Shown here piece after piece: positions 26,590 through 52,652 of a stretch of DNA of 64,000 nt. The notes beneath the pieces are model-generated. The model was not told the origin of the DNA. It saw only the letters and a list, made by a program, of their open reading frames with translations, and did not search any database. Position 1 is the first letter of the stretch. Each line of letters opens with the position of its first letter. Both the position numbers and the translations under genes were made by a program. The stretch is from Verrucomicrobia bacterium UBA3841 (GTDB lineage Bacteria > Verrucomicrobiota > Kiritimatiellia > RFP12 > UBA1067), in assembly GCA_002392765.1 (NCBI GenBank), contig DGHT01000036.1, positions 2,870-66,869 on the forward strand, given 5' to 3'.

Positions 26590-27708
26590 ATGGAAAACAC
26601 GGACACCAGATTCTTCTGCCTTTGCATGAGCCCTGCGATCGATGCGACGGTGAGGCTGCCGCATGCGCCGAGGGGCGAAGGCGAAATCTTCAAGGATGTC
26701 GCCGAGGATGAGAACGTGGGCGGAAAGGCCGTCAACGTCGCTCGCTGGCTGGCGATAAGAGGCGCGGAGGTCGCCTGCGGCGGACTTCTCGGCGAGGACA
26801 ACGACAGGCCTTTCGTCAAGGAACTTGCAAAGTACGCCATCGAGGACAGATTCGTGCGCGTTCCCGGAGCGACTCGCAGAAACGAGATGATCGTGTGGCC
26901 GGGAGGATCGGTGAAGCTCAACCGCGCGGCTTTTCCCGGATTGGGGAACGGGACGGCCGGGACAGGCGGGACAGATGTGACGGCCAGGGCGATTGACGCT
27001 TTGGCAGACGATGTTTTGTCGCGGTTGTCCGGTTCGTCTAAGATGTCCCGCGCTGACGCCGTAGCGGTCCTTTCCGGTTCGCTGCCGCCCGCCGTCCCGA
27101 AAGATTTCTACGCGAAGGCCGTCGCGCTGTTGAAGTCGCTCGGCTTGACCGTGGTTCTCGACGCGAGCGGCGAGGCCATGAAACTCGCGCTAGACGCCGG
27201 GCCCGACCTCATAAAGCCAAATGCGGAAGAATGCGAAGCGCTCGTCGGATTCGTTCCGGATACGCCGGAAGGGTTTGCCAGGGCAACGGCGCTCCTCCGC
27301 GAAAAGGCGGCTCACGTCGTCATTTCAGACGGCGGATCCGGTGCGTGGTTCGACGGCGAATTCGTCGCCGCGCCGAAGGTCGACGTGACCGATACGACGG
27401 CTGCGGGCGATACTCTTCTTGCGGAATTGTGCTGGAGAATGTTTGGGGGTGGAACAGGAAAACTGGGGGAACATATCCCCCGAGCGAAGGTTGTCCGCAA
27501 CGCGGATGCCCTAGCAGGGGTGGCGTCTCGCCCGTTTGAAGAGGGAAGAGAGAAACTGGGGGAACGGGCGTCTCGCCCGTTTGATGAGGGAAGAGGAATG
27601 AGGGAAGAGGGGAAATGGGCGGTTGCCGCCGGCTCCGCCGCCTGCACCATGCCCGGCGGAGCTCCACCGCCAGTCGAACTTGTCGAACGTCTTGCGGGCG
27701 AAAGATGA
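26590..27708 (+). CDS. PfkB-family sugar-phosphate kinase (1-phosphofructokinase / tagatose-6-P kinase-like) with a repeat-derived C-terminal extension
   Basis: GGKAVNVA and DTTAAGD motifs. The C-terminal ~100 aa are encoded by the GC-rich repeat element at 27437-27610. Confidence 0.65.
   Translation: MENTDTRFFCLCMSPAIDATVRLPHAPRGEGEIFKDVAEDENVGGKAVNVARWLAIRGAEVACGGLLGEDNDRPFVKELAKYAIEDRFVRVPGATRRNEMIVWPGGSVKLNRAAFPGLGNGTAGTGGTDVTARAIDALADDVLSRLSGSSKMSRADAVAVLSGSLPPAVPKDFYAKAVALLKSLGLTVVLDASGEAMKLALDAGPDLIKPNAEECEALVGFVPDTPEGFARATALLREKAAHVVISDGGSGAWFDGEFVAAPKVDVTDTTAAGDTLLAELCWRMFGGGTGKLGEHIPRAKVVRNADALAGVASRPFEEGREKLGERASRPFDEGRGMREEGKWAVAAGSAACTMPGGAPPPVELVERLAGER
27437..27610 (+). repeat. 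GC/purine-rich interspersed repeat (element A) copy 1, inside the PfkB 3' coding region
   Basis: Reverse complement matches 51116-51275 (shared blocks aacgggcgagacgccacccctgctagggcatc, gcgttgcggacaaccttcg, ctcgggggatatgttcccccag). Contains two copies of gcgtctcgcccgtttga and GAGGGAAGAGG tails. Confidence 0.6.
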
Positions 27709-28679
27709 AAATGGAAAACACTTCCAGACGGGATTTCATCCGCAACGGTTTTGCAATGGTCGGGGCCGGGATGTCCGTTATCGCTGCGGCGGACTCCGCC
27801 GCGGCATCGGGCGCACATGAAGCCGCCGGAGATCCGGCTCAAGGGCTGGACGTCACGGCCGATTCCGAGACTCGTTCCGCGTCCGCCCGCAAGCTTAAGG
27901 TCCGCTTCCTCGGCACCGGCGCGATCGACTGGGAGCGCGGGCCGAACGAATTCGGGGAAACGCGCCGTTTCGCGAGCGTGCTGGTGAACGGGAAAGCGCT
28001 TATCGACCTGACAGGACGCACTCGCGAGATGCTGCCGGAGGGATGCCGTCCGGAAGCAGTGTTCTACACCCACTCGCATCGCGACCACTTCGACGCAGAA
28101 GCCGCTCTTTCTCTCGGCGTCAAGCGCGTCTACTGCCACAAGTCGTGGGCCAAGACGGCTGTCGAGAAATTCGAGCAGGCGGCGAACGGACGTCCCGTTC
28201 CCGAAGTCAACGGCATCGTATTCGGCGCGCCGGTCCCCGTATGCGGCACCATGTTCACCGCGCTTCCCGCAAACCATTCCACGAAGCGCAAGGGAGAACA
28301 TTGCGCCATCTATCTTATCGACAAAGGGCCGGCGCGCCTGCTTTACGCGACTGACACTTGCGGCATTCCGCGCGACGCGCTGAAACACGCCGGACTGGAG
28401 CGGAACGCAGGCCGTCCGCTCACGGCGATAATCATGGAAGCGACTGCGGGAATCGGACAGGAGGACAATCCGCGCTTCTTCTTTTCGCATTCGTCCGTCG
28501 ATCTCGTGGCGAGAACCGTCCGCGCCCTCGCAGCGACAGGACGCTACCGTCCGCCGGCTTCGCGTCCCGTCTATATCACGCATCTTATCCGGTCCCAGTA
28601 CGCTTCGATGGCCGAGTTGGAGAATACCCTCCCCGCGCCGCTCAAAGCCGCATACGACGGTCTGGAAGTGGAGTTTTGA
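27705..28679 (+). CDS. Tat-exported MBL-fold metallo-hydrolase
   Basis: Tat motif SRRDFIRNGFAMVGAG. YTHSHRDHFD. C-terminus AYDGLEVEF, paralogous to the 11887 MBL protein. ATG overlaps the PfkB stop. Confidence 0.7.
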   Translation: MKMENTSRRDFIRNGFAMVGAGMSVIAAADSAAASGAHEAAGDPAQGLDVTADSETRSASARKLKVRFLGTGAIDWERGPNEFGETRRFASVLVNGKALIDLTGRTREMLPEGCRPEAVFYTHSHRDHFDAEAALSLGVKRVYCHKSWAKTAVEKFEQAANGRPVPEVNGIVFGAPVPVCGTMFTALPANHSTKRKGEHCAIYLIDKGPARLLYATDTCGIPRDALKHAGLERNAGRPLTAIIMEATAGIGQEDNPRFFFSHSSVDLVARTVRALAATGRYRPPASRPVYITHLIRSQYASMAELENTLPAPLKAAYDGLEVEF

Positions 28680-28752
28680 GCCTCCGCCCGGCGGCGATAT
28701 CAAGGAGATGCGGCATCCTGCCGCGTCCCTTTGCAAAACCTGCTTGTTTGTC

Positions 28753-28825
28753 TCACGCAAAGTACGCAAAGTTCGCAAAGCAACCATAGAAAAGAAACTT
28801 TGCGCGCTTCGCGAACTTGGCGTGA
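28753..28825. repeat. Palindromic element B copy 1: three tandem 9-mers (tcacgcaaag tacgcaaag ttcgcaaag), 16-bp spacer, three inverted 9-mers
   Basis: Direct read. Near-identical copy at 51340-51412; related copies at 30105-30172 and 43688-43761. Confidence 0.7.
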
Positions 28826-28944
28826 AATATATTCGGAGGGCAAATACCTCCAATGACAACAATCCCACAATTCCTCAGTTCCATCTTCCCTCAATTAAAG
28901 TCGAAAAAGTGTCATAGGACACTATGCTTTCACCGTCCTTCTTT

Positions 28945-30073: not shown

Positions 30074-30104
30074 ATGACTTGATGGGAAAATCTTGTTTTT
30101 GGCA

Positions 30105-30172: not shown

Positions 30173-31599
30173 GAATTAAACTCGCCTTCGCATTGCTGTG
30201 CGTATTTTCGTCCGTTATTGCCACAGCGACACCGCGTAGGCTTTTCGCCGAGACTCCAGCGCAGAAGGCCGAGCGTCTTTCCTGGTGGACGCACGACCGC
30301 TTCGGCATGTTCATACATTTTGGACTCTATTCGCTTCCGGCGCGCGGCGAATGGGTGAAGATGACCGAGCGCAAGGATATGAAGGAGGAGAAGTATCAGG
30401 AGTACTTCGACAATTTCAACCCCGACCTCTTCGATGCGAAGGAGTGGGCGAAGACGGCGAAGGCGTCCGGAATGAAATACGCCGTCCTTACGGCGAAACA
30501 CCACGAGGGCTTTTGCCTCTGGGACTCGAAGTTCACGGACTACAAAATAACCAACACCGCGTTCAGGCGCGACATCGTAAAGGAGTTCTGCGAGGCGTTC
30601 CGCGCCGAGGGCATTCGCGTGGGGCTATACTACTCGCTCATCGACTGGCACCACCCCGATTTCACGATCGACGCCCGCCATCCGCGCATGCCGCCGGGGT
30701 GCCGTCCCGCCGACCCGTCTGGAACCGTCGGCGGAGAGGAGACTTGGAAGCGCATCAACGCCGGAAAGGACATGAACCGCTACCGCCAGTATATGAAGGA
30801 TCAGGTCGGCGAACTTCTCACAAACTACGGGCGCATTGACATCGTCTGGTTTGACTTTACCTATCCTAACGACGGCGGGCACGGCAAGAGCGCGGCGGAC
30901 TGGGATTCGGAAGGCCTTCTCAAATACGCGCGCAGCCTCCAGCCGTGGATTATCGTAGACAACCGCCTTGGGCTTACCGACACGGCGGACGGCTGGGATT
31001 TCGTGACGCCCGAGCAGTTCAAGGTCGAGAAATGGCCGACCGTGAACGGTGAGCGCGTACCCTGGGAGACGTGCCAGACGCTGTCGGGCAGCTGGGGATA
31101 TGCCCGCGACGAAATGACGTGGAAGACGACGGAGAATGTCCTTGCCACATTGATCCATTCCGTCTCGAAGGGCGGCAACATGATCCTGAACATCGGCCCC
31201 ACGGGGCGCGGACGCTTCGACTTCCGCGCCGTGAGTCACTTGAAGGACATCGCGGACTGGATGGATCTAAACTCGCGCTCGATCTACGGCTGCACGGAAG
31301 CGCCGGAGAAATTCACGCCGCCGGAGAATACGGTTCTTACGTACAATCCCGAGACACGCCGGCTCTACATCCATCTCCTGGCCTATCCCGGCGGACGCCT
31401 CGCCTGTCCGTTCGCCGCCGACGTCGCCTACGCGCAGTTCCTCCACGACGCATCCGAAATCACGCTCGAACGTCACGGTACGGCTGCGGAGCAGACGCAG
31501 GAATTCTACAAGAGCGGCAACGAAGGAGTTTCCTACTTCCTCCTCCCCGCCGTCAAGCCCGACGTCCTCATACCCGTAATCGAGGTGATGCTAAAATGA
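30169..31599 (+). CDS. Alpha-L-fucosidase, GH29
   Basis: WTHDRFGMFIHFGLYS, TAKHHEGFCLWDS and GLYYSLIDW GH29 blocks. Signal peptide VRIKLAFALLCVFSSVIATA from GTG 30169. An alternative ATG at 30070 (ATGA overlap with the regulator stop) would read through element B and add a 33-aa pre-signal extension. Confidence 0.75.
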   Translation: MRIKLAFALLCVFSSVIATATPRRLFAETPAQKAERLSWWTHDRFGMFIHFGLYSLPARGEWVKMTERKDMKEEKYQEYFDNFNPDLFDAKEWAKTAKASGMKYAVLTAKHHEGFCLWDSKFTDYKITNTAFRRDIVKEFCEAFRAEGIRVGLYYSLIDWHHPDFTIDARHPRMPPGCRPADPSGTVGGEETWKRINAGKDMNRYRQYMKDQVGELLTNYGRIDIVWFDFTYPNDGGHGKSAADWDSEGLLKYARSLQPWIIVDNRLGLTDTADGWDFVTPEQFKVEKWPTVNGERVPWETCQTLSGSWGYARDEMTWKTTENVLATLIHSVSKGGNMILNIGPTGRGRFDFRAVSHLKDIADWMDLNSRSIYGCTEAPEKFTPPENTVLTYNPETRRLYIHLLAYPGGRLACPFAADVAYAQFLHDASEITLERHGTAAEQTQEFYKSGNEGVSYFLLPAVKPDVLIPVIEVMLK

Positions 31600-39631: not shown

Positions 39632-41139
39632 AATTGGTATTGGCAACACTGGCAACACTGGCAACATTCGCCGCGACAGCGGCGGAGACTTTCTGCAATC
39701 CCATGCCGATTCCGGACACGCCCGTCGGCATACTCTGCCGCGACAGCTTGAACGGCGACGCGATTCCCGAAATCGCATGGCAGAAAGATTGCTGGACAAA
39801 TGCCGCCTGCGGTTTCAAGGAGGTGCGCCAGTTCCGCGAGCTTGCCGATCCGGTCGTTCTCGCCGAGGGCGACACATGGTATCTCTATTCGAGCGCGGGG
39901 CTTATGTGGACCAGCGACGACTTCGGCGGCACATGGCGGCATGTGGGCGTGCAGGCCGAAGCCGACTATGCGCCCGCAGTCGCCAAGTTCCGCGGCAAGT
40001 ACTACCTTTGCACATCAGGCGGACCGCTGAGCGTGGCCGATTCGCCCACGGGTCCGTTCCGGACGCTTGGCGCGTTCGACAAGAAGTCGTTCTCGTCCGA
40101 TTCGCAGATGCCGCACACCCTGGATCCGGCGCTTTTTGTCGATGGCGACCATCTCTATCTTTACTGGGGATGCTTCGCAAAGCCGAAGGCCGTCTGGTGC
40201 GTGGAGCTAGATCCGGAGAATCCGCTTCGCGCAAAGACGCCCGGCTCTGCCGTCTGCCTCGTCGAGTTCGACACGGAAAGATATCCGTGGCTCGACAGGC
40301 TGATCGAGGGCGCGTGGGTGTTCAAGCGCGACGGCACGTACTACCTCACGTATGCGACCTACGGAACGGAGGATTCGCGCTACTGCTGGTGCGCGATGAA
40401 AGGTTCGGGTCCGCTCGGGCCGTTCGTCCCGCAGAAGAACAATCCGTTCTTCATGACGGAGAAGGGTCTTGTCACAGGAACAGGCCACGGCTCTATCTGG
40501 TGCGATAAAAACGGAGACTGGTGGATCAACAGCTGCGTGTCTGTCGCAGCCTATCACGGCTTCGAGCGGCTGATCGCCCAGGATCGTCTCTTTTTCGAGC
40601 CGGACGGGGATATTGCCGTCGGCAAGGCTACCGAAACGCCGCAGTGGCTTCCGTCCAGCGGCAGGAAGGGCGGTACGGGATGGAAGGCGATACCGCTCAA
40701 GTCCGACAGAAGCGCGGCGACCGACATGAGCATCAAGACGTGGTCGACGGTCGAGAGTCTGCCGTCGAAGACCGTTTTTGAGTTCCCCGGAGAGAAGACG
40801 ATCCGAGCGTTCCGCGTCATCTGGCGCGACATCGGGCTCGACACGAATCGCGGCATCTTGCCGGGGCCGTATCGCTACCGCGTGGACTATCGCTCGAACG
40901 GTGTCTGGTGGACTTGGCTCGACGCCTCCAAGAACGACGTAGATCTCATGGTGGACTACCGCGAGGCGCCGGAGGCGGTTGCCGACGCGGTTCGACTTGT
41001 CGTCCTCTCCGCCCCGCCTGGCATCACTCCAGGGCTCGTGGAGTTTACGGTCTTTGGCTGTATGTTGGGGGAATTGGGAAGAGGTTCCCCATTCCCCGTT
41101 CCCCTTTCCCAGTTCCCCATAAAAGGAGACCAACCATGA
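39628..41139 (+). CDS. GH43 five-bladed beta-propeller glycosidase with a C-terminal beta-sandwich domain
   Basis: ADPVVLAEGDTWYLYSS (catalytic base Asp), LDPALFVDGDHLYLYWG, IEGAWVFKRDGTYYLTYA (acid Glu). The last ~25 aa (GELGRGSPFPVPLSQFP) are encoded by a gggaa/ccccgttcccc repeat. Confidence 0.75.
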   Translation: MKLVLATLATLATFAATAAETFCNPMPIPDTPVGILCRDSLNGDAIPEIAWQKDCWTNAACGFKEVRQFRELADPVVLAEGDTWYLYSSAGLMWTSDDFGGTWRHVGVQAEADYAPAVAKFRGKYYLCTSGGPLSVADSPTGPFRTLGAFDKKSFSSDSQMPHTLDPALFVDGDHLYLYWGCFAKPKAVWCVELDPENPLRAKTPGSAVCLVEFDTERYPWLDRLIEGAWVFKRDGTYYLTYATYGTEDSRYCWCAMKGSGPLGPFVPQKNNPFFMTEKGLVTGTGHGSIWCDKNGDWWINSCVSVAAYHGFERLIAQDRLFFEPDGDIAVGKATETPQWLPSSGRKGGTGWKAIPLKSDRSAATDMSIKTWSTVESLPSKTVFEFPGEKTIRAFRVIWRDIGLDTNRGILPGPYRYRVDYRSNGVWWTWLDASKNDVDLMVDYREAPEAVADAVRLVVLSAPPGITPGLVEFTVFGCMLGELGRGSPFPVPLSQFPIKGDQP

Positions 41140-44100
41140 ACAAAGCAATCGCATCTCTCGTCTGCATCGGCGCCGTGTGCACTGCGCTGGCGGATTGGAC
41201 GCTCGAGCGTAGCGCGGCTAAGGACGGGCTTTTGATGACGGACGGCATCAAGCCCGGGTCGTATTATGTGAGGCTTGAAGGATTTTCGGGTGACGACGCG
41301 ACCACCCGCGCCAAGGTGTGGCACGAGGGCCGGCGTATCGAGTTCGTGCGCGGCGGGCCGTGGATGGACGACAACGGCAAAGAGCTGATGACGCTCGAGT
41401 CGCGTCCGGTGGAAGTCAAACCGGGCGAGGCGTTCCGTGTCGACAAACAGACTCCGTGGACGCGGATCGTCCTCGCCGAAAAGCCGCTCGACTACGCGCC
41501 GCAGCGCGTATTCACGAACATGGCGCTCGACCCGGAAGTCGCTTTCGCCGCGGAGGCAGATTTCGGCGTGTCGAACGTGGCCGTGACGCTCAACAGCTAT
41601 CTTGGTTCGGCGGTCAAAGGACGGCTCCGAGTGAAGGTGACGGACTACTACGGCAAGACGCTCGCAGAAACGGATCGCAGGGACGTCGAGCTGGGAAGGA
41701 CGCTTAAACTCGATGTCCCCTACGAGGACAACGGCTCGGGGCAGTTTCGCGCGGCGGTCGGCTTCACGGACGGATCCGGACGCAAGGTCTATCGCGTCTT
41801 CGCGCGGCTTGCGGACGCAAAGTCGCCGCACCGCGAGCTTCTGAGGATGAACGAGGGATGGACGCGCGTCTCGGGCAAGAAGGCCGTGATGCCCGCCGAG
41901 GTAAAGGACGGCGCGGAGAAGTTCAGCGGCACTTTCGCGGTTCCGGCCTCGTTCGCCGGAAAGCGCATATTCTTCAAGGCGCTCAGGATTTCGTGCGTTG
42001 CGAAGCTTTACGTCAACGGCGCGGAGGCGGCGACGTTCGGCGAGGACGGCAATTTCGCGGGCGATATGGAGGCGGACGTGACGCAATTCGTCAAACCGGG
42101 CGAGACAAACGAATTCGTCATCGACGCGAAGCGCGCGGACGAAGAGAAGTATCCCAGCGGAATGCCGGGACGCCTCTCGGCGGTTTCCGAACTTGCGCTG
42201 GAGGCGCGCGGCGAAAACGCAATCGGCCGTGTTTCGGTCGTGACGTCGTTCCGCGAAAAGACGATTCGCGTCAAGGCGGAGCATCCGGCTGGCTTTACCG
42301 TGCGAAACTCCGTATGGCGCGGAGACGAGAAGCTTCTTTCCTTCGCGGACGAATCCAAGTGGGAGAATCCGCCGCTTTGGGGCCCCATCAACTTTCCTCT
42401 CCTCAAGCTCGTCACTGAACTTGTCGATGCCAAGGGGAATGTCGTGGACGAGAAGCTGACGCGTTTCGCGTTCCGCGAGTTCTGGCCGGACGGCATGGCG
42501 CTCATGTGGAACGGCCACCGCGTGAAGGGTGAAGCGCGGGCGTTCATCAGCACGTGGGGGTGGTGGGACTTCGACAGGCGCTGCAAGCGCCAGTTCAACT
42601 GCGACATCCTATGGGAAGGCAAGCTGCGAGGCATCAAGTTTCTGCGGCACGTCTACAACTCGTCGGAGTTTCTTGATTTCTGCGACGAGGCGGGGATTCC
42701 CTGCGCCGTAGGTTTCGCGACGATCGCGAATCCATCTCCCGAAAAGAGCGCGAACAAGGAGTTCTGGGCGTGGAAGGAGTACAACGACCGCTGCCTCGCC
42801 GCGACCCTGCGCAACCATCCGTCTGTCATGACGTGGTATATCACGAACGAATACTACGCCGAGAGCGAAGACCGCAATCTGGGGCCAGTCCAGTCCGCGC
42901 TGAGGAACATCCGCGCGTTCGATCCGTTCCACTTCGCCGAAACGGGCTGCGACCTCGATCTGCGCGGCGAGAACAACATAATCTCGACGCACTATCCCGT
43001 CGAGCTGCTCTCCTTGCGCAAGGCCGGGTGCTACATGCCGTATTCGTTCTACTGGCGCGATATCGAAAAGCCTTTCGTGAAAGGGCAGGCGATTCCCTCC
43101 GGGCAGATCCTGAAGGTCTGCAACATCTACGCCGATTCGCCGGCCAAGTGGGGCGAGAAGCCGATTTTCATCAACGAGACGTGCTGGGACTTCTTCTTCA
43201 ATCCGCCGTTCGGATGGACGCGCCTTGCGGGCGACGAGGTTTTCAACGATCCAAGATACTGCGACAAGTGGCACATCGAGACGGAAGTCGAGGCGGTGCG
43301 CGGGCATCGCGATGCAGACGTGACGCTCTGGACGCCGTGGCGCTGGTACCACATCGACCCCGAGTGGCGCGTTTCGCCGGAGATTGACGTCGTGAATATC
43401 CAGCGCTATTCGCGCTTTTACGAGGGGACGGAGGTCAAGTACGACGTCAACGTGTTCTACGACAGGTGGCGTCCCGCGACTGTGACGTGGTTCTGGCGGC
43501 TTGAAGACTCGGAAGGCAAGACGGTTGTCTCGTCCAAGGATGAGCGGATAGACGTTGACACGTCCGCGTTTATCAGAAAGCAGATTTCCTTCAAGGCGCC
43601 AAAGCCTGGTGAATACACGCTTGTCTTCGGGTTGAAGGGAGTCTGCGAGAAGACGCTTGACATTGTGTCTAGTTCGCGGTTTATGTCTCACGCAAAGCTC
43701 GCAAAGGGCGCAAAGTCGTCTGGCGAAGATGAACTTCGCGGGCTTGGCGAACTTGGCGTGAGAAAATATGCCAATGTATTCGGAGTGCGCGACGTCCTTT
43801 CCGAGCGGCTGCTTGACCGCGCGGCGGCAGGCGAGACCATCGTCATCCTCGCGCGGGACGACTACCCGGAGTGGCTGCCGGAGATACCGTCCGTATCCGA
43901 CCAGTCCGCAGCGATCCTGCGCACGTACAGAACGCGCCATCCGATACTGAAAGGGTTCAAGAAAGACGACCTCAAGTATTTCTATCCGAAATCGATCGCA
44001 TGCGACAGGGCGTTTGCGAAGCCTTCGGGCGGCAACGCGAAGACTGTTCTCGAATTCGGCGGCGCGTCGGGGCTAGTCTATTCCGCGCTTGTCGAAGTGC

Positions 44101-45695
44101 CTTACGGGAAAGGATGCTTCCTCTATTCGCGCCTCGTGCTTGAACCGGATATAAACCCAGTCGCCGCGAAACTTTTGGAGAACATGGCCGCCTACAAGAG
44201 CGCGAAAGAGCCTGGCAGGGCGTTGTTCCTGACGGCGCGTGGGGACACGCGCCCTCCCGTAGCGGAGGCGCTTGTGAAAAACTGCGGCGTGGAACTGGAT
44301 TTCGGCGGCATTGCAGACATCGGCAAATACAGCGCCATATTCGTGGACGGCAAGGCGTCGCTTTCCAAGGACGACCTCAAGGCCCTTGCGGCGTCCGGAA
44401 AGAATGTCATCGTGTTCGGAGCCTGCGAGGCGGCCGGAATGAAGACGCGTTCAGTCGGCGCGAAGTCGTGGAGCGGACGCGCGGTGCGCATATCGAGCGA
44501 CCCGATCCTCGACGGACTCACCAATCAAGATATGATGTGGCGTAAGAAGTTCTCCGACGAGAAGACCGCTTTCGCGGAACTGGCAGCTGATGAGTTCGTC
44601 GCCGAGAAGGGCGTGCTGACATATCCGGCATATATCGTCCGGCGCGGCAACATCGTGTTCACGACACTCGACCCGTCCGTCAACGCGAAGGACGCTTCGA
44701 AGCAGGCATCGCGTCTCTGGGCGACGATTCTCGGGAACGCCGGCGTTAGGGTGAAGGGCTTTTCGCGTCCGTTCATCCCGAAAAACCTCTTTTACGATCA
44801 AGTGGATCTGTCGCCGTATCTAGATCGTACTCTCGCGGACGAAAAGGGGAGTGACGGCAAGGGTTCGTGGAACGACCAGGGACCCGAGCAGAGTCTGCCT
44901 CAGATTTTTGCGGGCGAGCGCGGCTGGGTAGGTTCGGTTCCGTATGATGTGAAGATGGCGGGTCCCTGCGCGTTCACGCTGAAGAGCGAATTCTGCAAGG
45001 CGGGCAAGGACAATGTAACGGTTGAAATCGGACGCAAGTTCGACACTCTCAACTGGCTCTCGACCGGCGCATGGGTCGGGAAGGGCAAGCGCGACTATAC
45101 CGTGCGCGTCAATTATGCGGACGGAACCTCGCGGCAGATTGAAGTGTCCGGCGGCGTGAACTTGTTCGACTGGGTTTCTGAAATGCCTGATTTCTCCGGC
45201 GAGACGGATACAGTCACCGCGCTGCGAACCTTGACTGCCAAGTCGGGGTTGTTCGCGAAGATGAACGTCTATTCGACAAGCTGGGTCAATCCGGATCCGG
45301 AGAAGATCGTCAATACGGTAGAATTCCTGCGCGGCGAGAAGAACTGCGCCGTAGTTGGCGTCTTCGGCCTGACGCTGGGTGCGCGCGAGACGGCGTATTC
45401 CGCCCTGTCTCAGGAAGAACGCGGCAGACTCCACGAGCGGTTCGTCGCCGAGGCTATGGCTGCGAAGGAGGCGGGCGATAGAGTCAAGGCGATTGCTCTT
45501 TACGAAAAGGCCATTCGCGCAAAGCCCGTCGATCTCGGCATCTACCGCTCGATCGCCGCGCTCTACGAGGAGGCGGGGGATGCGGAAGCGGCGCTTGCGA
45601 CATGCCGGCGGTCGCTCGAAGCGGACTACAACCAGCCAGACCTTTGGGACGAGGAAAAGCGTCTTGAGGCGAAAGTGAAAGGAGCAGCGAAATGA
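41136..45695 (+). CDS. 1519-aa multidomain secreted protein: GH2-like (clan GH-A) N-terminal half plus a ~650-aa C-terminal extension with a terminal TPR-like segment
   Basis: Shine-Dalgarno AAAAGGAGACC. Signal peptide MNKAIASLVCIGAVCTALA. Sugar-binding jellyroll block KLYVNGAEAATFGEDGNFAGDMEADVTQFV. RNHPSVMTWYITNEYY (GH2 acid/base NE block). KPIFINETCW (nucleophile-like). Palindromic element B copy 3 is read through in frame at 43688-43761. Confidence 0.55.
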   Translation: MNKAIASLVCIGAVCTALADWTLERSAAKDGLLMTDGIKPGSYYVRLEGFSGDDATTRAKVWHEGRRIEFVRGGPWMDDNGKELMTLESRPVEVKPGEAFRVDKQTPWTRIVLAEKPLDYAPQRVFTNMALDPEVAFAAEADFGVSNVAVTLNSYLGSAVKGRLRVKVTDYYGKTLAETDRRDVELGRTLKLDVPYEDNGSGQFRAAVGFTDGSGRKVYRVFARLADAKSPHRELLRMNEGWTRVSGKKAVMPAEVKDGAEKFSGTFAVPASFAGKRIFFKALRISCVAKLYVNGAEAATFGEDGNFAGDMEADVTQFVKPGETNEFVIDAKRADEEKYPSGMPGRLSAVSELALEARGENAIGRVSVVTSFREKTIRVKAEHPAGFTVRNSVWRGDEKLLSFADESKWENPPLWGPINFPLLKLVTELVDAKGNVVDEKLTRFAFREFWPDGMALMWNGHRVKGEARAFISTWGWWDFDRRCKRQFNCDILWEGKLRGIKFLRHVYNSSEFLDFCDEAGIPCAVGFATIANPSPEKSANKEFWAWKEYNDRCLAATLRNHPSVMTWYITNEYYAESEDRNLGPVQSALRNIRAFDPFHFAETGCDLDLRGENNIISTHYPVELLSLRKAGCYMPYSFYWRDIEKPFVKGQAIPSGQILKVCNIYADSPAKWGEKPIFINETCWDFFFNPPFGWTRLAGDEVFNDPRYCDKWHIETEVEAVRGHRDADVTLWTPWRWYHIDPEWRVSPEIDVVNIQRYSRFYEGTEVKYDVNVFYDRWRPATVTWFWRLEDSEGKTVVSSKDERIDVDTSAFIRKQISFKAPKPGEYTLVFGLKGVCEKTLDIVSSSRFMSHAKLAKGAKSSGEDELRGLGELGVRKYANVFGVRDVLSERLLDRAAAGETIVILARDDYPEWLPEIPSVSDQSAAILRTYRTRHPILKGFKKDDLKYFYPKSIACDRAFAKPSGGNAKTVLEFGGASGLVYSALVEVPYGKGCFLYSRLVLEPDINPVAAKLLENMAAYKSAKEPGRALFLTARGDTRPPVAEALVKNCGVELDFGGIADIGKYSAIFVDGKASLSKDDLKALAASGKNVIVFGACEAAGMKTRSVGAKSWSGRAVRISSDPILDGLTNQDMMWRKKFSDEKTAFAELAADEFVAEKGVLTYPAYIVRRGNIVFTTLDPSVNAKDASKQASRLWATILGNAGVRVKGFSRPFIPKNLFYDQVDLSPYLDRTLADEKGSDGKGSWNDQGPEQSLPQIFAGERGWVGSVPYDVKMAGPCAFTLKSEFCKAGKDNVTVEIGRKFDTLNWLSTGAWVGKGKRDYTVRVNYADGTSRQIEVSGGVNLFDWVSEMPDFSGETDTVTALRTLTAKSGLFAKMNVYSTSWVNPDPEKIVNTVEFLRGEKNCAVVGVFGLTLGARETAYSALSQEERGRLHERFVAEAMAAKEAGDRVKAIALYEKAIRAKPVDLGIYRSIAALYEEAGDAEAALATCRRSLEADYNQPDLWDEEKRLEAKVKGAAK
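43688..43761. repeat. Palindromic element B copy 3, inside the giant ORF, in frame
   Basis: tcacgcaaagctcgcaaagggcgcaaag ... acttcgcgggcttggcgaacttggcgtga, translated as SHAKLAKGAKSSGEDELRGLGELGVR. Confidence 0.65.
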
Positions 45696-48367
45696 GAAGG
45701 AAAATCACTGTGGCGGCTTGCGCGTTCGCGGCGGTGGTCGCGCTTGCGGCGGTCGCAAAGACGGTGGACTTCCCGATTCCGGACGCTGTCCGGAGCTGGG
45801 ACATCCCGGAACGGGCCACGAACGGCGTTAAGGCCGTGTGGATCGAGAATGTGCCGTGGCACGGCAAGCCCACGCGTTTCTTCGCCTACTATTCTCTGCC
45901 CGAAGGCGCGACGGCGGAGAAGAAGGTGCCGGGCATCGTGCTCGTGCACGGCGGATACGGAACGGCCTTCCACACATGGGTGAAGCTGTGGAACGACCGC
46001 GGATATGCCGCGATCGCGATGGACAATTGCGGCGGCATCCCCGGAGAGAAGAACCACACGGCTGAACACCCGCGGCACGAGTGGTCCGGGCCAAACGGCT
46101 GGGGACGCTATGAGGAGGAGACTCTGCCGCCGGAGGAGCAGTGGGTATATCACGCGATCGAATGCGTCATCCGCTCGCATACGTTCCTGAGGAATCTCCC
46201 CGAAGTCGATGCATCGAGGATCGGCGTGACCGGAATATCGTGGGGCGGTTTCCTCACGTCGATCGCCTGCGGTGCTGATCCGCGCTTTGCGTTCGCCGTG
46301 CCCGTCTACGGATGCGGAAACCTGCGGCGGCATTCAGTCTTCGCGCCGGAAATCGGCGAGCTGTGGGAGTCGCTCTGGAATCCAGTCGAATACGCGAAGA
46401 ACTGCCGCATGCCGACGCTTTGGTGCACCGGGACGAACGATTATTTCTTCCCGCTCGATTCGTTCGAGGAGACTGCGTTTGCCGCAGGGAATCCTCTTTT
46501 CTCCATCAAACTCCGCATGAAGCACGGGCATCCGCCGGAGGGCGATCCGCCGGAAATTGCGGCTTTTGCCGATTCAATCGTGAAGGGCGCGCCGAAGTTG
46601 ACCGACCGCAAGATCGCGCGCCGCGAGTGGCTGTATACCGAATCCGCCAATCCAGTATGGAAGGACAGACCTTTCGAGGTTTCCGCAGAAGCACCGCAGA
46701 ATTGGACGATACGCTTCGAGAACGCCATCACCGAAGACGGGCTGATCCTCTCATCCCCGCCGGAATTCCAGACGGCGACGCTTGACGCCAAGGGCGTTGT
46801 CGTCAACGGGGCGACCATCCGCGAGACCGAGCGGCGCGTTTTTGCCGACGGAATGGCGATGCGGTACGTTCTGCCGGAAGGCGAGAGGCGAGTGGAACGC
46901 GAAGAAACGGTCTGGACGCTTCCTGCCGACGCGAAGGTGTGGTATCAGGAATACGGCATGGACTATGAAAAGCCGTATTGCTCCTCGCTCGTGAGCGAGA
47001 TTCCCGTCGGCACTGTGATGGATTTCCCCGTGACGGCGAAGCTCGCGGACGGGACATATCGCCTGATTACCGAGGCGAATGTGGTCGGCTACACCGATTC
47101 CGCCGCGAAGTATATTGGCGATGGACGCTTCGGTGTATTCTACGTGAACGACCCGGACGGGTTCGACCAGAAGGGCGCGGATACGACGCCCTGGCGCGTG
47201 ATGCTTGTCGCCAAGGATTTGCAGACGCTTGCGACGAGCGACATTGTGCGGCGGCTTTGCCCCGCGCCGTCCGCAGCGGTTGCGGCGAAGGCGGCGAAGT
47301 TCGTCCGCCCCGGCCGCGCCGTCTGGCAGTGGCTGCCGGCGGGTGCGCCCAAGTATGGAGAACAGAAGGAGTGGTACGACAGGACGAAGGCGCTGGGCTT
47401 CGAGTATTACCTTATCGACGACGGCTGGCGCGATTGGCGCGATGGCGACATGGACCAGTGGGCGTGCCTCAAGAAGAGGATCGACTATGGGAAGTCCATC
47501 GGAGTTGAGACTTTCATGTGGGTCGACTCCAAGGAAATGCGCAATGCCGAAACTCGCCGCGGGTATCTTGCGAAGGTTAAGGCGTCGGGTGCGGTAGGCA
47601 TAAAGATTGATTTCCATCCCGCGCCTTCCTGCGAGCAGATGGCATGGTATGAGGAGGCCCTTGCGGACACCCTCGAATTCGGCCTCATGACTGATTACCA
47701 CGGCTGCGTAAAGCCGTCCGGTCGCGAGAAGACGTGGCCGCACGAGGTCGCGCGCGAGGCGATCCGCGGACACGAATGGCACATTACGCGCTACAAGAGA
47801 GTGCTTCCGCCGGAACACGACTGCATCCTGCCTTTCAATCGTCTCGTTCAAGGACACGCCGACTACACGCCGGTAGTCTTCGAGGAGAAAGAGCTTGCCG
47901 GATATACGCGGGCGAGGGAGCTTGCCCAGGGAATAATCTTCTCCGCGCCGTTCCTCTGCCTCGGCGACTATCCGCAGAACTACCTCGAAAGTCCTGCGGC
48001 TGAAGTCGTAAAGGCGCTGAAGCCGATCTATGACGAGACGATTATCCTTCCCGGCTCGGAGATTGGCGAATGCGTTGCGGTCGCAAAGCGCAAGGACGAG
48101 AAGTGGTTCATTGCAATCGAAAACGGCGCAGAGGACCGCAGCCTTGAAATCCCGCTTTCGTTCCTTCAGTCCGGCAAGTGGCGGATGAAGAAGTTCGCCG
48201 ACGCCGAAGACTCCAATATCGAATTCGACATTTCGGAATGCACCGTCTCGCCATCCGATACGCTGAAGCTCGCACTCCGCGCCAAAGGCGGGTTTGTGGC
48301 CGTCATTGAACCTGAACTCGACTGGGCTAAGCGCGAGAAGGCGAAGTTCATGCATCGCTACGGATAA
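45692..48367 (+). CDS. Bifunctional-looking protein: N-terminal alpha/beta-hydrolase esterase (acetyl-xylan-esterase-like) fused to a C-terminal DDGW-type TIM-barrel alpha-glycosidase-like domain (GH97/GH27/GH36-like)
   Basis: Signal peptide. GISWGG nucleophile elbow. C-terminal half with GFEYYLIDDGW and GIKIDF blocks. Confidence 0.5.
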   Translation: MRRKITVAACAFAAVVALAAVAKTVDFPIPDAVRSWDIPERATNGVKAVWIENVPWHGKPTRFFAYYSLPEGATAEKKVPGIVLVHGGYGTAFHTWVKLWNDRGYAAIAMDNCGGIPGEKNHTAEHPRHEWSGPNGWGRYEEETLPPEEQWVYHAIECVIRSHTFLRNLPEVDASRIGVTGISWGGFLTSIACGADPRFAFAVPVYGCGNLRRHSVFAPEIGELWESLWNPVEYAKNCRMPTLWCTGTNDYFFPLDSFEETAFAAGNPLFSIKLRMKHGHPPEGDPPEIAAFADSIVKGAPKLTDRKIARREWLYTESANPVWKDRPFEVSAEAPQNWTIRFENAITEDGLILSSPPEFQTATLDAKGVVVNGATIRETERRVFADGMAMRYVLPEGERRVEREETVWTLPADAKVWYQEYGMDYEKPYCSSLVSEIPVGTVMDFPVTAKLADGTYRLITEANVVGYTDSAAKYIGDGRFGVFYVNDPDGFDQKGADTTPWRVMLVAKDLQTLATSDIVRRLCPAPSAAVAAKAAKFVRPGRAVWQWLPAGAPKYGEQKEWYDRTKALGFEYYLIDDGWRDWRDGDMDQWACLKKRIDYGKSIGVETFMWVDSKEMRNAETRRGYLAKVKASGAVGIKIDFHPAPSCEQMAWYEEALADTLEFGLMTDYHGCVKPSGREKTWPHEVAREAIRGHEWHITRYKRVLPPEHDCILPFNRLVQGHADYTPVVFEEKELAGYTRARELAQGIIFSAPFLCLGDYPQNYLESPAAEVVKALKPIYDETIILPGSEIGECVAVAKRKDEKWFIAIENGAEDRSLEIPLSFLQSGKWRMKKFADAEDSNIEFDISECTVSPSDTLKLALRAKGGFVAVIEPELDWAKREKAKFMHRYG

Positions 48368-48568
48368 TACGAATGCAGCTGCCGCCGCAAGAGACGAGTT
48401 CCTCGTGGACTACGTACGCGTCTACGATCTGGTGCGATAGAAAGAAATATGGAAATGTGCAAATATCCAGTATCCATTATCCAATGATGGCGGGGCAAAT
48501 TGGATATTGGCTGTTGGCTGTTGGATATTTTCACATTTCTACATTAAACAAATGCGTTCACAATTGAC

Positions 48569-50407
48569 ATGAAGAAGAATTGCATGTTTATCGCCTTGGC
48601 GCTGCCGGTCGCATGCGCGTTCGCTCTAATGCAGGAGAACGCGCCTGGCCTTTCTTCCGCATGGCTTTATCCACAGATGGACATGGAGCTTTTCCGCGTC
48701 CATCAAATGCGGGACGATGTCCGGCGCGCGGGTCTCTACGCCTATCATCCGGGCGTGTTGCCGCCGTTGCGCGACAGGGCGGAGTTTCGCCGCGTGTGCG
48801 CCGAAGACGACCCGCTGCCTGAGGCGTTCCGCAGAATTTCCGAAACGCACTACGATGCCGCCGAGGGACGCCGTTATGTGACGGTCGACGGCGGATTGAT
48901 GGGCGGCGGGGCGATCCGTTCTGCGGAGACGAACTGGGAGGCGCGGGTCTTTGACGGTAGCTGGCGTCCGGTCGCCGCGTATCCAGACGCGCCGGTGCCT
49001 CCGCACCGCGAGCGGCTGCCGGAGGACCGTTCCTTCTCCGGGCTTGTGGCGACGAACGGCTGGTACGATGCGCTCGCGGAGCAATTCGCGTACATCGAGT
49101 GTCGGGCCAATGCAGAGCCGAGGCTCTTCGTCGGCGAGTCCATCCCCGAGATGCTGGCGGAAAAGCCGGAGGATTTCGAGTATGACGCGACGATGGACGA
49201 AGTGTCGGACGACTGCTGGCGGACGCGTCATGCGCTTGCATTCCGGTATCTGCGCTTTGCATCCGACGTGACGAACGTCAAAGTCGTGCCTGTCGGACGG
49301 CGGCGTCCCGTGAAGGGCCGGATCGTTACGGACAACGCCCGATGGCGGAAGATGGCCGAAGTCGGCGAACGGACGCTGGCGCTGTGCTCGAACGACTTCT
49401 TGGTGGACGGCATCAAGCGCGACCGCCTGCCGTGGGGAGGCGATTTGACCGTGTCTCTCATGGCGGATGCATACGTCTATGGCGACGCGGAAATTGCGCG
49501 GCGGACGCTCTCGGTCATGGACGCCTACGAAGGCGATGTCAATGGAATCGTAACGTATTCGATGTGGACGGTTGTCTCGCACGACCTCTACCAGCTTTAT
49601 TTCGGGGATGCGCAGTTTCTCCGGGACCGCTGGTGGCGGATCAAGGCGCGCATCGGCGACCTTATGTCCCGCACGGACGAGACCGGTTTTGTCGTGCGCG
49701 GTCTCGATTGGGTCTTTATCGACTGGGCGAAGCCGAAGTCCAATACGGCGCTGCAGGCGATATGGTATGGATCGTTGCAGGCGGCGGCGCGACTGGCGGA
49801 CCGCGTAGGCGATCCGCAGGCGGACGACTACCGCGCATTGGCCGCAAAGGTCCGCGAGAGCCTGAACAATCTTGCGTGGGACGAGGCGCGCGGTCTCTAC
49901 AGGGCCGACCCTACGGATGCGGCGGTTTTCGGCCGGCAGGCGAACATCTTTGCGGTGGTCTTCGGCGTGGCCGACGACCGTCAGTCGGCCCTGATCGGCG
50001 ACGAGCTTGCCCAGGGTCGTCTGCCGCCTGTCGGGACGCCCTACGTCTTCGGCTGGGAATTGGTGGCGCTGGCGCGGACGGGACATGCAGACGCATTTTT
50101 CTTGGGACTCGAGCGGATATTCGGCGGCATGCTCGACAATGGCGCGACGACGTATTGGGAAAGCTACGACCCGAACGAGACTGGTGATGGGCGATACGCA
50201 TTCTACGGACGGCCGTGGGCGAAGAGCCTTTGTCACGTCTGGAGCGCATGGCCGGCATTCATCTTCGTTTCGGAAGGTCTGGGCATCCGGCCTACCGCCG
50301 ACGGCTGGCGAACATGGTCGCATCGACCCTTGCCAGGTTGCGGGAACTTGAAAGCTGAGATTCCAACGCCGGACGGGATTCTTCGTTTGGGCGGAGCGAG
50401 TAACTGA
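48569..50407 (+). CDS. Alpha-L-rhamnosidase-like GH78 (alpha/alpha)6-barrel enzyme
   Basis: DGIKRDRLPWGGDLTVS block characteristic of GH78. Six-hairpin region. TTYWESY near the C-terminus. Signal peptide. Confidence 0.65.
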   Translation: MKKNCMFIALALPVACAFALMQENAPGLSSAWLYPQMDMELFRVHQMRDDVRRAGLYAYHPGVLPPLRDRAEFRRVCAEDDPLPEAFRRISETHYDAAEGRRYVTVDGGLMGGGAIRSAETNWEARVFDGSWRPVAAYPDAPVPPHRERLPEDRSFSGLVATNGWYDALAEQFAYIECRANAEPRLFVGESIPEMLAEKPEDFEYDATMDEVSDDCWRTRHALAFRYLRFASDVTNVKVVPVGRRRPVKGRIVTDNARWRKMAEVGERTLALCSNDFLVDGIKRDRLPWGGDLTVSLMADAYVYGDAEIARRTLSVMDAYEGDVNGIVTYSMWTVVSHDLYQLYFGDAQFLRDRWWRIKARIGDLMSRTDETGFVVRGLDWVFIDWAKPKSNTALQAIWYGSLQAAARLADRVGDPQADDYRALAAKVRESLNNLAWDEARGLYRADPTDAAVFGRQANIFAVVFGVADDRQSALIGDELAQGRLPPVGTPYVFGWELVALARTGHADAFFLGLERIFGGMLDNGATTYWESYDPNETGDGRYAFYGRPWAKSLCHVWSAWPAFIFVSEGLGIRPTADGWRTWSHRPLPGCGNLKAEIPTPDGILRLGGASN

Positions 50408-50426
50408 AGAAGGGGGTGCATCGTAA

Positions 50427-51209
50427 ATGAGAACTATATGTGAAGCAACTCTATCAGCAATGCTTTTGACGGTTTTCTGCGGCGGAACTTTTGGCTTGGA
50501 GCATTGTCATCCGGTCGGCGAACGGGGAACTGGGAACGGGGAATTGACGGTGTCGCCTGGCGGGATGTCTCCGAGGGAAGCACTTCTCGCAATCCGCGCG
50601 GCGAAGGCGAAAGGGAATACCGGCGCATGGACTGTCCGTGTGGAACGCGGAGCCTATTTCCTCGCAGAGCCGCTTGTTTTCACGCCAGCGGATTCCGGAA
50701 CGCCCGAAGCGCCTGTACGCTGGGTCGGCGAAGACGGCAAGGCGGCGTTCGTCGGCGGGGAGCGGGTCAAAGGATGGCGAGACGAGGGCAATGGCTTGTG
50801 GTCGGCACCTGTTCCGAAGGATGCGGAAGGGAATCCAGTATGGTTCGAGCAGCTGTGGGTAAACGGACGCCGTGCGGAGCGTGCCCGCGCGCCGAACGCT
50901 GTTCCGGACGATCCAGCCGCTGGCTGTATGAAGCTCTGCGAAGCGACGGAGAGCGTTGTCACGAATGCGGTGGACGGGTCGGTGGCGTACATCCAGCGCA
51001 TCGCTTCCACCAATGCGGCGATGTCCAAGTTGGAGAACACCCTCCCCGCGCCGCTCAAAGCCGCATACGACGGTCTGGAAGTGGAATTTTCAGCCGCCGG
51101 GACGGCGGCTTTCCCAGTCAATAACGGGCGAGACGCCACCCCTGCTAGGGCATCGCGAACGCGACTCGCCTTCGGCTCGGGGGATATGTTCCCCCAGTGT
51201 GGTCCCTAA
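50427..51209 (+). pseudogene. Truncated parallel beta-helix enzyme gene (first ~200 codons) fused to a duplicated 3' end of the MBL gene; chimeric remnant
   Basis: N-terminal cap similar to the 37835 protein (SPGG...AWTVRVERGAYFLAEPLVFTPADSGTPEAPVRWVG...VKGW). From about 51031 the sequence is a copy of 28614-28679 (ENTLPAPLKAAYDGLEVEF), then reads into repeat A2. Confidence 0.6.
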
Positions 51210-51285
51210 CTGGGAAAGCACCCCTGCCAGGGCATCCGCGTTGCGGACAACCTTCGGTTGGGGAATATGGTATCCTGCTGGCGAT
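51091..51285. repeat. GC-rich repeat element A copy 2 (a partial third copy lies at 51480-51550)
   Basis: Matches the reverse complement of 27437-27610. Interrupts the duplicated segment relative to 28614-28876. Confidence 0.6.
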
Positions 51286-51339
51286 ATCAAGGAGATGCGG
51301 CATCCTGCCGCGTCCCTTTGCAAAACCGGCTTGTTTGTC

Positions 51340-51412
51340 TCACGCAAAGTACGCAAAGTTCGCAAAGCAACCATAGAAAAGAAACTTTGCGCGCTTCGCG
51401 AACTTGGCGTGA
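51340..51412. repeat. Palindromic element B copy 4 (identical to copy 1; part of the segmental duplication)
   Basis: Identical arms and spacer to 28753-28825. Confidence 0.7.
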
Positions 51413-51605
51413 AATATATTCGGATGGCAAATACCTCTAATGACAACAATCCCACAATCTCATAATTTCATAAACGAGCGGGACGGTCGGCTTTCCCAGT
51501 TACCTCTTTCCTCGCAACGGGCGAGACGCCCGTTCCCCCAGTTATTCACGGAGCGGGACCTTACAACTCCTTGGAAGCCGCAATTTCACATTTTACACTT
51601 TATTT

Positions 51606-51614
51606 GTGGTATAA
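51606..51614 (+). promoter_or_regulatory. Extended -10 TGGTATAAT upstream of rbsK (Shine-Dalgarno AAAGGAGG at 51666)
   Basis: Direct read. Confidence 0.4.
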
Positions 51615-51682
51615 TATAATGTGGAAGCGCACGTATTCGCGTTCGTCGCGCTGTAGACGGCTTGAAAGGAGGAATCAAGACA

Positions 51683-52612
51683 ATGACGAAACCATCGAAG
51701 AAAATCGTAGTGCTGGGTTCGACCAACACAGACATGGTGATCGCCGGCAAGCGCATCCCCGTTCCGGGCGAGACAGTGAGCGGCGGAAAATTCATGATGA
51801 ACCCGGGCGGCAAGGGAGCAAACCAGGCCGTCGCCGTTGCGCGGCTCTCGGCGAAGCGCGGACAGTGTACGTTCATCGCAAAAGTCGGTGACGACATCTT
51901 CGGCCGCGAGACTGCGGCAAGGATGAAGAAGGACGGCATAGCGGCGCATCTCGTCATCGACCGCAAGGAGCAGTCGGGTACGGCGCTCATACTCGTTGAC
52001 GCGAAGGGGCAGAACGTAATATCCGTCGCGCTCGGCGCCAACGGCACGCTTTCGCCGAAAGACGTAGAGCCGTTCAGGAAGGATATAGAGGGCGCGGCGG
52101 CGCTCGTCATGCAGCTTGAGACCCCTGTCGAGACGGTCTTGTGGGCGGCGAAGGTCGCGCACGACAAAGGCGTGACGGTGATACTGAACCCGGCCCCGGC
52201 GGGGAAACTTCCGAAGTCGCTCTATCCGCTCGTGGACTGGATCACGCCGAACGAGACCGAGGCGGAGCTGCTGACCGGCGTGAAGGTGTCAGATGCCGCG
52301 AGCGCGGCCAAGGCGGTGAAAGTCCTGAAGAAGCGCGGCGTCGGGCATGTCGTCATCACCATGGGCACGAAAGGCTGCTGGTGCGGCGATTGCGGAAAGC
52401 TGTTTCCAGCTCTCAAGGTGAAGGCGGTCGACTGCGTTGCGGCCGGGGACACGTTCAACGGCGCGTTTTCCGTCGCGCTCGCGGAAGGCAAGTCGTGTGC
52501 GGAGGCGATAGATTTCGCGCAGAAAGCCGCAGCGATCGCCGTCACCCGCCCGGGGGCTCAGTCGTCCGTGCCGTACCGGAAGGAAATTGTTAAATTGAGG
52601 GAACAGGGATGA
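51683..52612 (+). CDS. rbsK: Ribokinase (PfkB family)
   Basis: VVLGSTNTDMV, GGKGANQAVA and AAGDTFNGAF ribokinase signatures. Strong Shine-Dalgarno AAAGGAGG. Confidence 0.8.
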   Translation: MTKPSKKIVVLGSTNTDMVIAGKRIPVPGETVSGGKFMMNPGGKGANQAVAVARLSAKRGQCTFIAKVGDDIFGRETAARMKKDGIAAHLVIDRKEQSGTALILVDAKGQNVISVALGANGTLSPKDVEPFRKDIEGAAALVMQLETPVETVLWAAKVAHDKGVTVILNPAPAGKLPKSLYPLVDWITPNETEAELLTGVKVSDAASAAKAVKVLKKRGVGHVVITMGTKGCWCGDCGKLFPALKVKAVDCVAAGDTFNGAFSVALAEGKSCAEAIDFAQKAAAIAVTRPGAQSSVPYRKEIVKLREQG

Positions 52613-52652
52613 GGGAACAGGGATAAAGTGTAAAATGTAAAGAGTAAAATAT

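Follow-up and report, generated by a model that had tools for sequence, protein, structure and literature searches.

Repetitive extragenic palindromic (REP) sequences and the bacterial interspersed mosaic elements (BIMEs) built from them, the REP doublets known as REPINs, and miniature inverted-repeat transposable elements (MITEs) are short, non-coding and multi-copy; they form hairpins, reshuffle their modules, gather in intergenic clusters and vary between close strains. Rickettsia palindromic elements (RPEs) are palindromic repeats known for in-frame insertion in protein-coding genes. Fusion pseudogenes of the type ascribed to microhomology-mediated break-induced replication or fork stalling and template switching (MMBIR/FoSTeS) combine short, imperfect microhomology at a junction with an ectopic stretch of the same replicon that fills a deletion, and leave a truncated fused open reading frame (ORF). 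In homology-facilitated illegitimate recombination (HFIR), one end is homologous and the other illegitimate (PMC3240628). Glycoside hydrolase family 141 (GH141) contains alpha-L-fucosidases, and endo-fucanases have recently been reported in it too (PMC10154630, PMC12786026). Here we analyze 64,000 nucleotides of Verrucomicrobia bacterium UBA3841, a rumen Kiritimatiellae strain (contig DGHT01000036.1, positions 2,870 to 66,869; hereafter the window), and within them ORF 50427-51209, in which the beginning of a GH141-family gene is fused to sequence duplicated from elsewhere in the window. This ORF is probably a non-functional chimeric pseudogene that arose by illegitimate recombination in a highly rearranged glycan-utilisation locus.

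Read codon by codon, the 260-aa ORF has three parts, namely 201 codons of a GH141-family gene, 20 codons from a gene for a metallo-beta-lactamase (MBL)-fold hydrolase, and 38 read-through codons. This reading bears out an earlier note on this DNA, which had described a chimera of a beta-helix N-terminal cap and an MBL C-terminus. The remnant at 50427-51029 encodes the signal peptide and N-terminal cap and reaches into the beginning of the GH141 insertion domain. When GTDB genomes were scanned, it proved to be approximately 74-78% identical in amino acid sequence to the N-termini of full-length relatives in L002, L003, L004 and L082, all from Kiritimatiellae metagenome-assembled genomes (MAGs) of rumen and gut. 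The family alignment holds through ...RIASTNAAMSK, with the homology pattern ...WVNGRRA.RAR.PN...VTNA...TNAA, and then stops. The best full-length relative (L004:9872-12055; 727 aa, 74% identical to the fragment) contains Beta_helix (residues 403-597), GH141_M and DUF5123 domains and matches the founding GH141 structure, BT_1002 (PDB 5MQP), with an E-value of 2e-38. At the junction this relative reads ...RIASTNAAMSKVVATAAEDLPYVSL..., and the window reads ...RIASTNAAMSKLENTLPAPL.

By homology, the gene lineage thus belongs to GH141: its first 201 aa share homology with the N-terminal regions of GH141-like Kiritimatiellae proteins. Unlike BT_1002, however, the ORF retains only the first ~28% of the enzyme, the 3' ~72% having been replaced, and the whole catalytic beta-helix is missing. 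The fragment alone scores 16.6 bits against the Pfam GH141_M model, below the cut-off of 27. A tblastn search with the full-length relative found no further piece of the hydrolase gene anywhere in the window. Partial coverage of the family, an abrupt end at the junction and a remainder absent from the window are the marks of a pseudogene. The earlier note was also correct that the duplicate replaces the 3' portion of a parallel beta-helix gene, since homology to the 727-aa relatives ends at residue 201, and that one polysaccharide-active enzyme has been lost, its catalytic part being absent from both the ORF and the window.

In a search of 5.8 billion sequences, no protein covered more than 72% of the ORF, so no homologue reaches into the MBL-derived tail. 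A widespread full-length homologue of the chimera, which the earlier note had said would speak against its account, therefore did not appear among the database proteins. The 90% cluster of the chimeric product has one other member only, a 74-aa variant. An exact-protein look-up returned no record for the 260-aa ORF or for a 316-aa form of the downstream ribokinase with a TTG start, and gene callers start both later (50460 and 51683). A scan of 50300-51750 for terminators found none.

One claim about the gene's kinship did not survive. The truncated gene had been called a paralogue of the beta-helix gene at 37556/37835-39631, with which it shares 36% identity over 50 aa (BLASTP, E 5e-06). The latter gene has a Pel9A-like Pfam make-up of DUF1565 and a GH120 insertion domain, and the two are remote superfamily relatives, not close paralogues. 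In another lineage, a homologous GH141-like gene that is split was observed in L094 (4001-7330) and L095 (747-4076), where a 207-aa N-terminal ORF is followed, after 37 nt, by an 889-aa ORF with Beta_helix and GDSL domains. The split is identical in the two samples and lies near the same domain boundary as the truncation in the window.

The donor of the chimeric tail lies in the same window, and the duplication consists of two blocks. Block 1 (51019-51099, copying 28606-28686) was found at 93% identity by repeat search, pairwise alignment and within-window BLAST, the last aligning 77 nt at 93.5% identity (E 3e-28). Block 2 (51280-51458, copying 28693-28871) is 98.3% identical over 179 nt by within-window BLAST (E 2e-93), and the repeat finder reports it as a direct repeat, 28693-28884 / 51280-51471, at 95%; past 28871/51458 the similarity is weaker, extending to 28884/51471. 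Pairwise alignment shows the blocks to be colinear and in the same orientation in both copies, which form same-strand direct repeats 22.4 kb apart. The gap between the blocks is approximately 6 nt at the source, compared with approximately 180 nt (51100-51279) at the copy. As in a dispersed segmental duplication, the shared identity reaches beyond any mobile-element core, and other copies of the palindromic element B share arms of 30-35 nt only. Repeat search, alignment and BLAST agree that the duplication placed by the earlier note at 28614-28876 and 51034-51461 is real, with coordinates right to ~5 nt, and element B was carried along with it, its core lying inside block 2.

In the unambiguous donor-derived parts, 6 of 242 positions read off the sequences differ (3/63 and 3/179), or approximately 2.5%. 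One of the changes converts the stop codon from TGA in the source (28677-28679) to TCA in the copy (51090-51092), after which 38 more codons follow before a TAA at 51207-51209, within element A. The duplication had been described as recent; this is doubtful in view of the divergence and the mutated stop, compared with contigs from two other runs that match the window at 100% identity for as much as 11 kb.

The left junction was analyzed in a nucleotide alignment of the chimera, three GH141 relatives and the 3' end of the MBL gene. The chimera tracks the GH141 relatives as far as ...GCGGCGATGTCCAAG, and from TTGGAGAA on it agrees with the MBL gene; this places the crossover between 51027 and 51030. 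The sequence shared there, CGATGnCCnAG, agrees at 9/11 positions, and such a short match at a breakpoint, without long homology, is what defines microhomology-mediated recombination. The left junction at 51029/51030 is a microhomology in unique coding DNA, not at a repeat element. At the right junction, weak similarity persists in the pairwise alignment for approximately 13-35 nt beyond 51458. The direction of copying follows from the tail itself. Its C-terminal motif, LP..L.AAYDGLEV, is kept in a 40%-identical MBL homologue in L068, which ends ...LPDTLRAAYDGLEV, and in the in-window paralogue 11197-12732, which ends ...LPAGVEPAYDGLEV. Because the tail is conserved in MBL homologues, the 20 codons originate in the MBL gene, and the GH141 locus received the copy. 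The coordinates of these features are collected in Table 1.

Table 1. Features of the donor and recipient regions and of the adjoining repeats (window coordinates)
Feature	Position	Strand	Basis or remark
MBL-fold hydrolase gene with twin-arginine translocation (Tat) signal (Lactamase_B_2), source gene	27705..28679	+	chimeric tail copied from its final 63 nt (28617-28679)
Source spacer with element B (core 28753-28825)	28693..28884	+	between the MBL gene and a GntR/LacI-type regulator gene
GH141-family right-handed beta-helix glycoside hydrolase, 5' remnant, codons 1-201, ending ...STNAAMSK	50427..51029	+	homology to full-length relatives
Left junction zone, imperfect microhomology CGATGtCCaAG (copy) vs CGATGgCCgAG (MBL source)	51019..51029	+	five-sequence alignment
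Copy of the last 20 MBL codons (LENTLPAPLKAAYDGLEVEF, codons 202-221, 51030-51089, from source 28617-28676) plus mutated stop	51030..51092	+	repeat search, alignment, BLAST
Element A, in the copy, absent from the source	51100..51279	+	alignment, BLAST, folding
Copied spacer (block D1): 38-mer GGCGATATC...GCGTCCCT, element B palindrome (core 51340-51412), ~46-60 nt flank	51280..51471	+	
Second A-family module (A3): GGCTTTCCCAGTT, hairpin AACGGGCGAGACGCCCGTT, degenerate inverted end	51466..51578	+	between the duplicate and the ribokinase promoter
Ribokinase gene (ATG 51683-52612), with promoter-like site TTTACA-17-TATAAT at 51592-51620	51592..52612	+	downstream neighbour
Other in-window copy of element A, inverted, in frame within the 3' part of the fruK (PfkB) gene	27441..27610	-	just upstream of the MBL gene

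Taken together, these observations are consistent with the following course of events. The start state would have been a GH141-family beta-helix gene of ~720 codons between the rhamnosidase and ribokinase genes. A break or replication-template switch at codon 201 would have joined this gene, via the 9-of-11 microhomology, to the last 20 codons of the MBL gene, 22.4 kb upstream on the same strand. A donor stretch of approximately 250 nt, made up of the MBL gene end with its stop codon and the spacer that contains element B, would have been copied before rejoining upstream of the ribokinase promoter, in or beside A-family modules, with loss of ~1.6 kb of the hydrolase gene. The copy would later have drifted, through ~2.5% substitutions, including the TGA to TCA change, and through indels of A-family modules. 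We infer a single templated-insertion/deletion event rather than a larger duplication followed by a deletion, together with the exact right junction and the place of element A in the order of events.

The locus shares all three features of the MMBIR/FoSTeS-type fusion pseudogenes described above. It differs from them in that the mechanism is read from the end product only and that the right junction is undefined without an intact ancestor. As a whole, the feature is an ordinary chimeric pseudogene, a well-known kind of rearrangement scar. We also considered HFIR anchored on the shared 38-mer that opens block 2. This was rejected, as donor sequence should then lie left of the anchor and recipient sequence right of it, the opposite of the arrangement observed.

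Two repeat elements lie in or next to the duplicate. Element B is an imperfect palindrome of ~75-90 nt, each arm of which contains three CGCAAAGNN 9-mers. Besides the two cores in Table 1, it occurs in the window at 30087-30175 and 43664-43766, the core motif giving 12 matches over these four loci in 64 kb, compared with 0.13 expected by chance. Long hairpins with bulges are predicted for three of its sequence variants (-31 to -39 kcal/mol, z -3.4 to -4.8); inverted arms, a long hairpin and multiple copies are features that element B shares with elements of REPIN/REP type. The loci at 30087 and 43664 share the palindromic core with the duplicated block but not its flanks, so the duplication is a copied DNA segment and not an independent insertion of element B.

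Element A is a mosaic, composed of a hairpin, GCCGCCGGGACGGCGGC (GC), followed by TTTCCCAGT, two units of CACCCCTGCYAGGGCATC..GGGGAWATG and an inverted motif, ACTGGGAAAGC; its copies carry one or two CACCCCTGCYAGGGCATC...GGGGAWATG units. Its fold as a structured RNA has z near zero (-0.04 to -0.9), with only small local hairpins standing out. At gathering threshold, Rfam returned a single tRNA (23019-23090) for the whole window, and a permissive search of 50900-51700 returned nothing; elements A and B lie outside described RNA families. Related A modules are also present in L022, another Kiritimatiellia MAG, and in strain L097. L097 has an identical ribokinase promoter, and upstream of it an A unit is joined directly to the 38-mer that opens block 2; element B is absent there. 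This joint implies that the 38-mer is itself an A-family module, so the difference in element A may reflect either a gain in the copy or a loss from the source. The earlier statement that element A interrupts the duplicate therefore holds as a description, but not as a direction of change.

Several points weigh against the reading of the ORF as a pseudogene left by a single copying event. No intact orthologue above 80% identity was found, the best matches being at 63% in the protein search, 74-78% in GTDB and 77% in JGI metagenomes, so that the 3' end of the ancestral gene and the true position of the right junction lack a reference sequence. Given the arrangement in L097, part of the 'copied' spacer may be a resident repeat, and copying of one segment may be too simple. 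The ratio of nonsynonymous to synonymous polymorphism (pN/pS) against L096, a JGI metagenome contig, reaches 0.57 in the remnant compared with 0.17 in the rhamnosidase gene next to it, a contrast that would favour a pseudogene, but the former figure rests on 8 differences only. No independent contig spans the junction at 51029/51030. The Logan contigs L090 and L091 (SRR5322992 and SRR873608) both begin at 51456, 3 nt short of where block 2 ends, and L001 ends at 50629. The stretch shared with the source copy that lies nearest to 51456 is 20 nt long, and a k=31 graph break is unexpected from this repeat alone; the shared contig start hints at a co-existing variant that diverges at 51455/51456.

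These contig ends, together with the origin of the window sequence, bring up the question of an assembly artefact, that is, a false join or a repeat collapsed during metagenome assembly. The ENA contig NODE_216_length_122964 (ERZ12302818), which was assembled from short reads with metaSPAdes, matches the window at 100% identity, and the Logan contigs break at 50629 and 51456. Nevertheless, the copy differs from the source by 6 single-nucleotide polymorphisms, one of them in the stop codon, and by the 180-nt insert, and the longest exact match across the left junction is ~10 nt, far under any assembly k-mer. These two properties make a collapsed repeat or a k-mer mis-join very unlikely. Both flanks run into unique sequence that Logan contigs from the two runs named above reproduce at 100% identity, and the exact 249-aa chimeric product (start 50460) is recorded on at least 3 contigs from 2 samples. 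An artefact, which the earlier note had offered as grounds for dismissing its account, is accordingly very unlikely. A larger rearrangement in two steps is possible, and we give it some weight. Here, a 22.4-kb tandem duplication by unequal exchange (28617/51029), or a dispersed second copy of the MBL gene and its spacer, would have been followed by a deletion. Direct repeats on one strand 22.4 kb apart have the geometry of unequal sister-chromatid exchange, multi-kb deletions are demonstrable at the locus, L068 has an MBL homologue within 6 kb of a GH141-like gene, and 2.5% divergence leaves time enough for two events. This course, however, requires two independent illegitimate events whose ends happen to leave a clean 250-nt patch, and neither a duplicated 22-kb segment nor a second MBL body has left any other trace in the window.

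The earlier note had associated the event with the repeat elements, by recombination or transduction. Element B, or an A/B composite, would then be a mobile element of the MITE/REPIN kind that carried flanking DNA, including the MBL end, to its new site. Element B is indeed multi-copy, with its 12 matches at 4 loci, the right end of the duplicate abuts A-family modules, and the presence of such modules varies between near-identical strains. We nevertheless consider transduction unlikely: the B copies at 30087 and 43664 came without flanks, element B sits mid-block like a passenger (~55 + 63 nt on one side, ~46 nt on the other), and the left junction is a microhomology of two coding sequences, not an element end. 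There is no clear target-site duplication, and the gene tables of the 64-kb window and overlapping loci list no transposase or REP-associated tyrosine transposase (RAYT) beside either copy. It is decidedly unlikely that the truncated ORF encodes a functional secreted N-terminal-domain protein, for example a glycan binder or decoy. The ORF does retain its start codon, an N-terminus resembling a signal peptide and an intact upstream context, 260 codons are open, and the lineage of L094 and L095 encodes the N-terminal 207 aa as a separate ORF in two samples, so a split at this domain boundary is tolerated. That lineage, however, keeps the catalytic part next door, whereas it is gone in the window. 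The tail comes from an unrelated gene, runs on into repeat-element read-through and is shared by no homologue; the related strain L096 cuts the stub further, at ~codon 73; and pN/pS, from 8 differences, hints at relaxed constraint. We thus retain the chimeric pseudogene as the probable identity of the ORF.

The surrounding genes encode fucosidases, GH43, GH97-like and rhamnosidase enzymes, beta-helix enzymes, sugar kinases and regulators. L004 and L082 are 91-97% identical to the window in nucleotide sequence over 41124-50395 and differ from it in gene content. Between its GH97-like and rhamnosidase genes, L004 has an additional 4.2 kb that encode a GDPD domain and include an intact GH141 gene as well as one of GH16-like type, and the gene order in L082 is rhamnosidase, GH3, GH141. 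The check proposed earlier, a search for the intact beta-helix gene at the orthologous site in related strains, did not yield it, as the L004 and L082 genes sit elsewhere. We considered these genes as the ancestral allele and rejected them: at ~73% nucleotide identity, compared with 91-97% for the flanks, and at a different position, each is a paralogue or xenologue.

Both L004 and L082 lose similarity to the window at 50395, in the last rhamnosidase codons. At L004 15046-15100 and L082 7651-7700, we observed a common rhamnosidase C-terminus, ...GGKESENDQ, and common first residues of the next gene, MKMTNKAL.FGY. Beyond the point equivalent to 50395 lie a metallophosphoesterase gene in L004 and a GH3 gene in L082, and the window diverges from both there. 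From these alignments, 50395 appears to be a recurrent recombination breakpoint at a gene boundary. In L096, which is ~96% identical, the cut in the GH141 stub corresponds to approximately window position 50645 and is followed (1186-1302) by unrelated DNA, the C-terminus of a convergent AraC-type regulator. A comparison of these strains fits a rearrangement hot spot for glycan utilisation in which the remnant is probably decaying. A second deletion scar is present at 48132-48440, where the end of the GH97-like ORF (45692-48367) together with the spacer after it contains two scraps of a GH16-like gene; the scraps, at 48329-48437, match L004 12508-12565 and 13010-13077.

The locus documents the loss of one GH141-type gene, of the fucosidase/fucanase family, in a rumen Kiritimatiellae strain, and offers a base-pair-resolved example of the decay and reshuffling of a polysaccharide-utilisation locus. 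It also carries a warning for annotation, in that the 249-260-aa 'hypothetical protein' is a chimera and unfit to seed protein families. A more promising lead than the duplication itself are the in-frame mosaic palindromic and heptamer elements, which vary between near-identical strains.

Element B at 43664-43766 lies in frame within a conserved ORF of ~1520 aa (40908/41136-45695). Here the window reads ...LDIVSSSRFMSHAKLAKGAKSSGEDELRGLGELGVRKYANVFG..., compared with ...LDIAVAAKSASGGRRYANVFG... in the 91%-identical L004 orthologue, which has a 37-nt mini-palindrome at this point; the window protein has a net surplus of 22 codons, and neither ORF is disrupted. The fruK/PfkB gene (26590-27708), for 1-phosphofructokinase, encodes a called protein of 372 aa, compared with ~312 aa for solved FruK structures. 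Its alignment to 9qv3 ends at residue 285, and an insert of ~55 aa, which is element A, precedes the conserved ...AVAAGSA... tail. In both cases, the element sits in frame in a long, otherwise conserved and uninterrupted ORF, as RPEs do. The comparison with RPEs differs in the host phylum, Kiritimatiellota, in the unrelated sequences, and in the number of cases, a handful in one 64-kb window.

Elements A and B resemble REP/BIME sequences, REPINs and MITEs in being short, multi-copy, hairpin-forming and modular, in clustering between genes and in varying between strains. Unlike these, they come without a RAYT or transposase identified in the gene tables of the 64-kb window and without consistent target-site duplications, several copies lie inside ORFs, and neither matches an Rfam family. 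One might tentatively regard the two families as an active mosaic palindromic element system comparable to RPEs and REPINs, with in-frame insertion, remodelling of 3' ends, ectopic recombination and the GH141 stub as its product; we hold this to be rather doubtful.

In scans of IMG/VR viral contigs, the 38-mer had no match, and these scans do not support the idea that the duplicated segment came from a phage. The triple 9-mer array CACGCAAAGNNCGCAAAGNNCGCAAAG (CGCAAAG) occurs exactly on four IMG/VR contigs (L098-L101), on L099 twice and in direct orientation. No inverted partner arm was obvious in the three contigs inspected (L099-L101), so the half-site is more widespread than the full element B.

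Arrays of the heptamer (GAGGGAA)n were also observed, with 14 matches compared with 1.5 expected, at 25858-25896, 27541-27610 and 52597-52621 in the window and at 1260-1400 in L097. They often adjoin the hairpin AACGGGCGTCTCGCCCGTT, and in an alcohol dehydrogenase (ADH)-like gene one of the arrays is translated in frame as EEGRGKREEERG. At the 3' end of the ribokinase gene, L097 has an additional 94 nt made up of heptamers and a hairpin, which changes the protein from 309 to 323 aa and constitutes a strain-level polymorphism.

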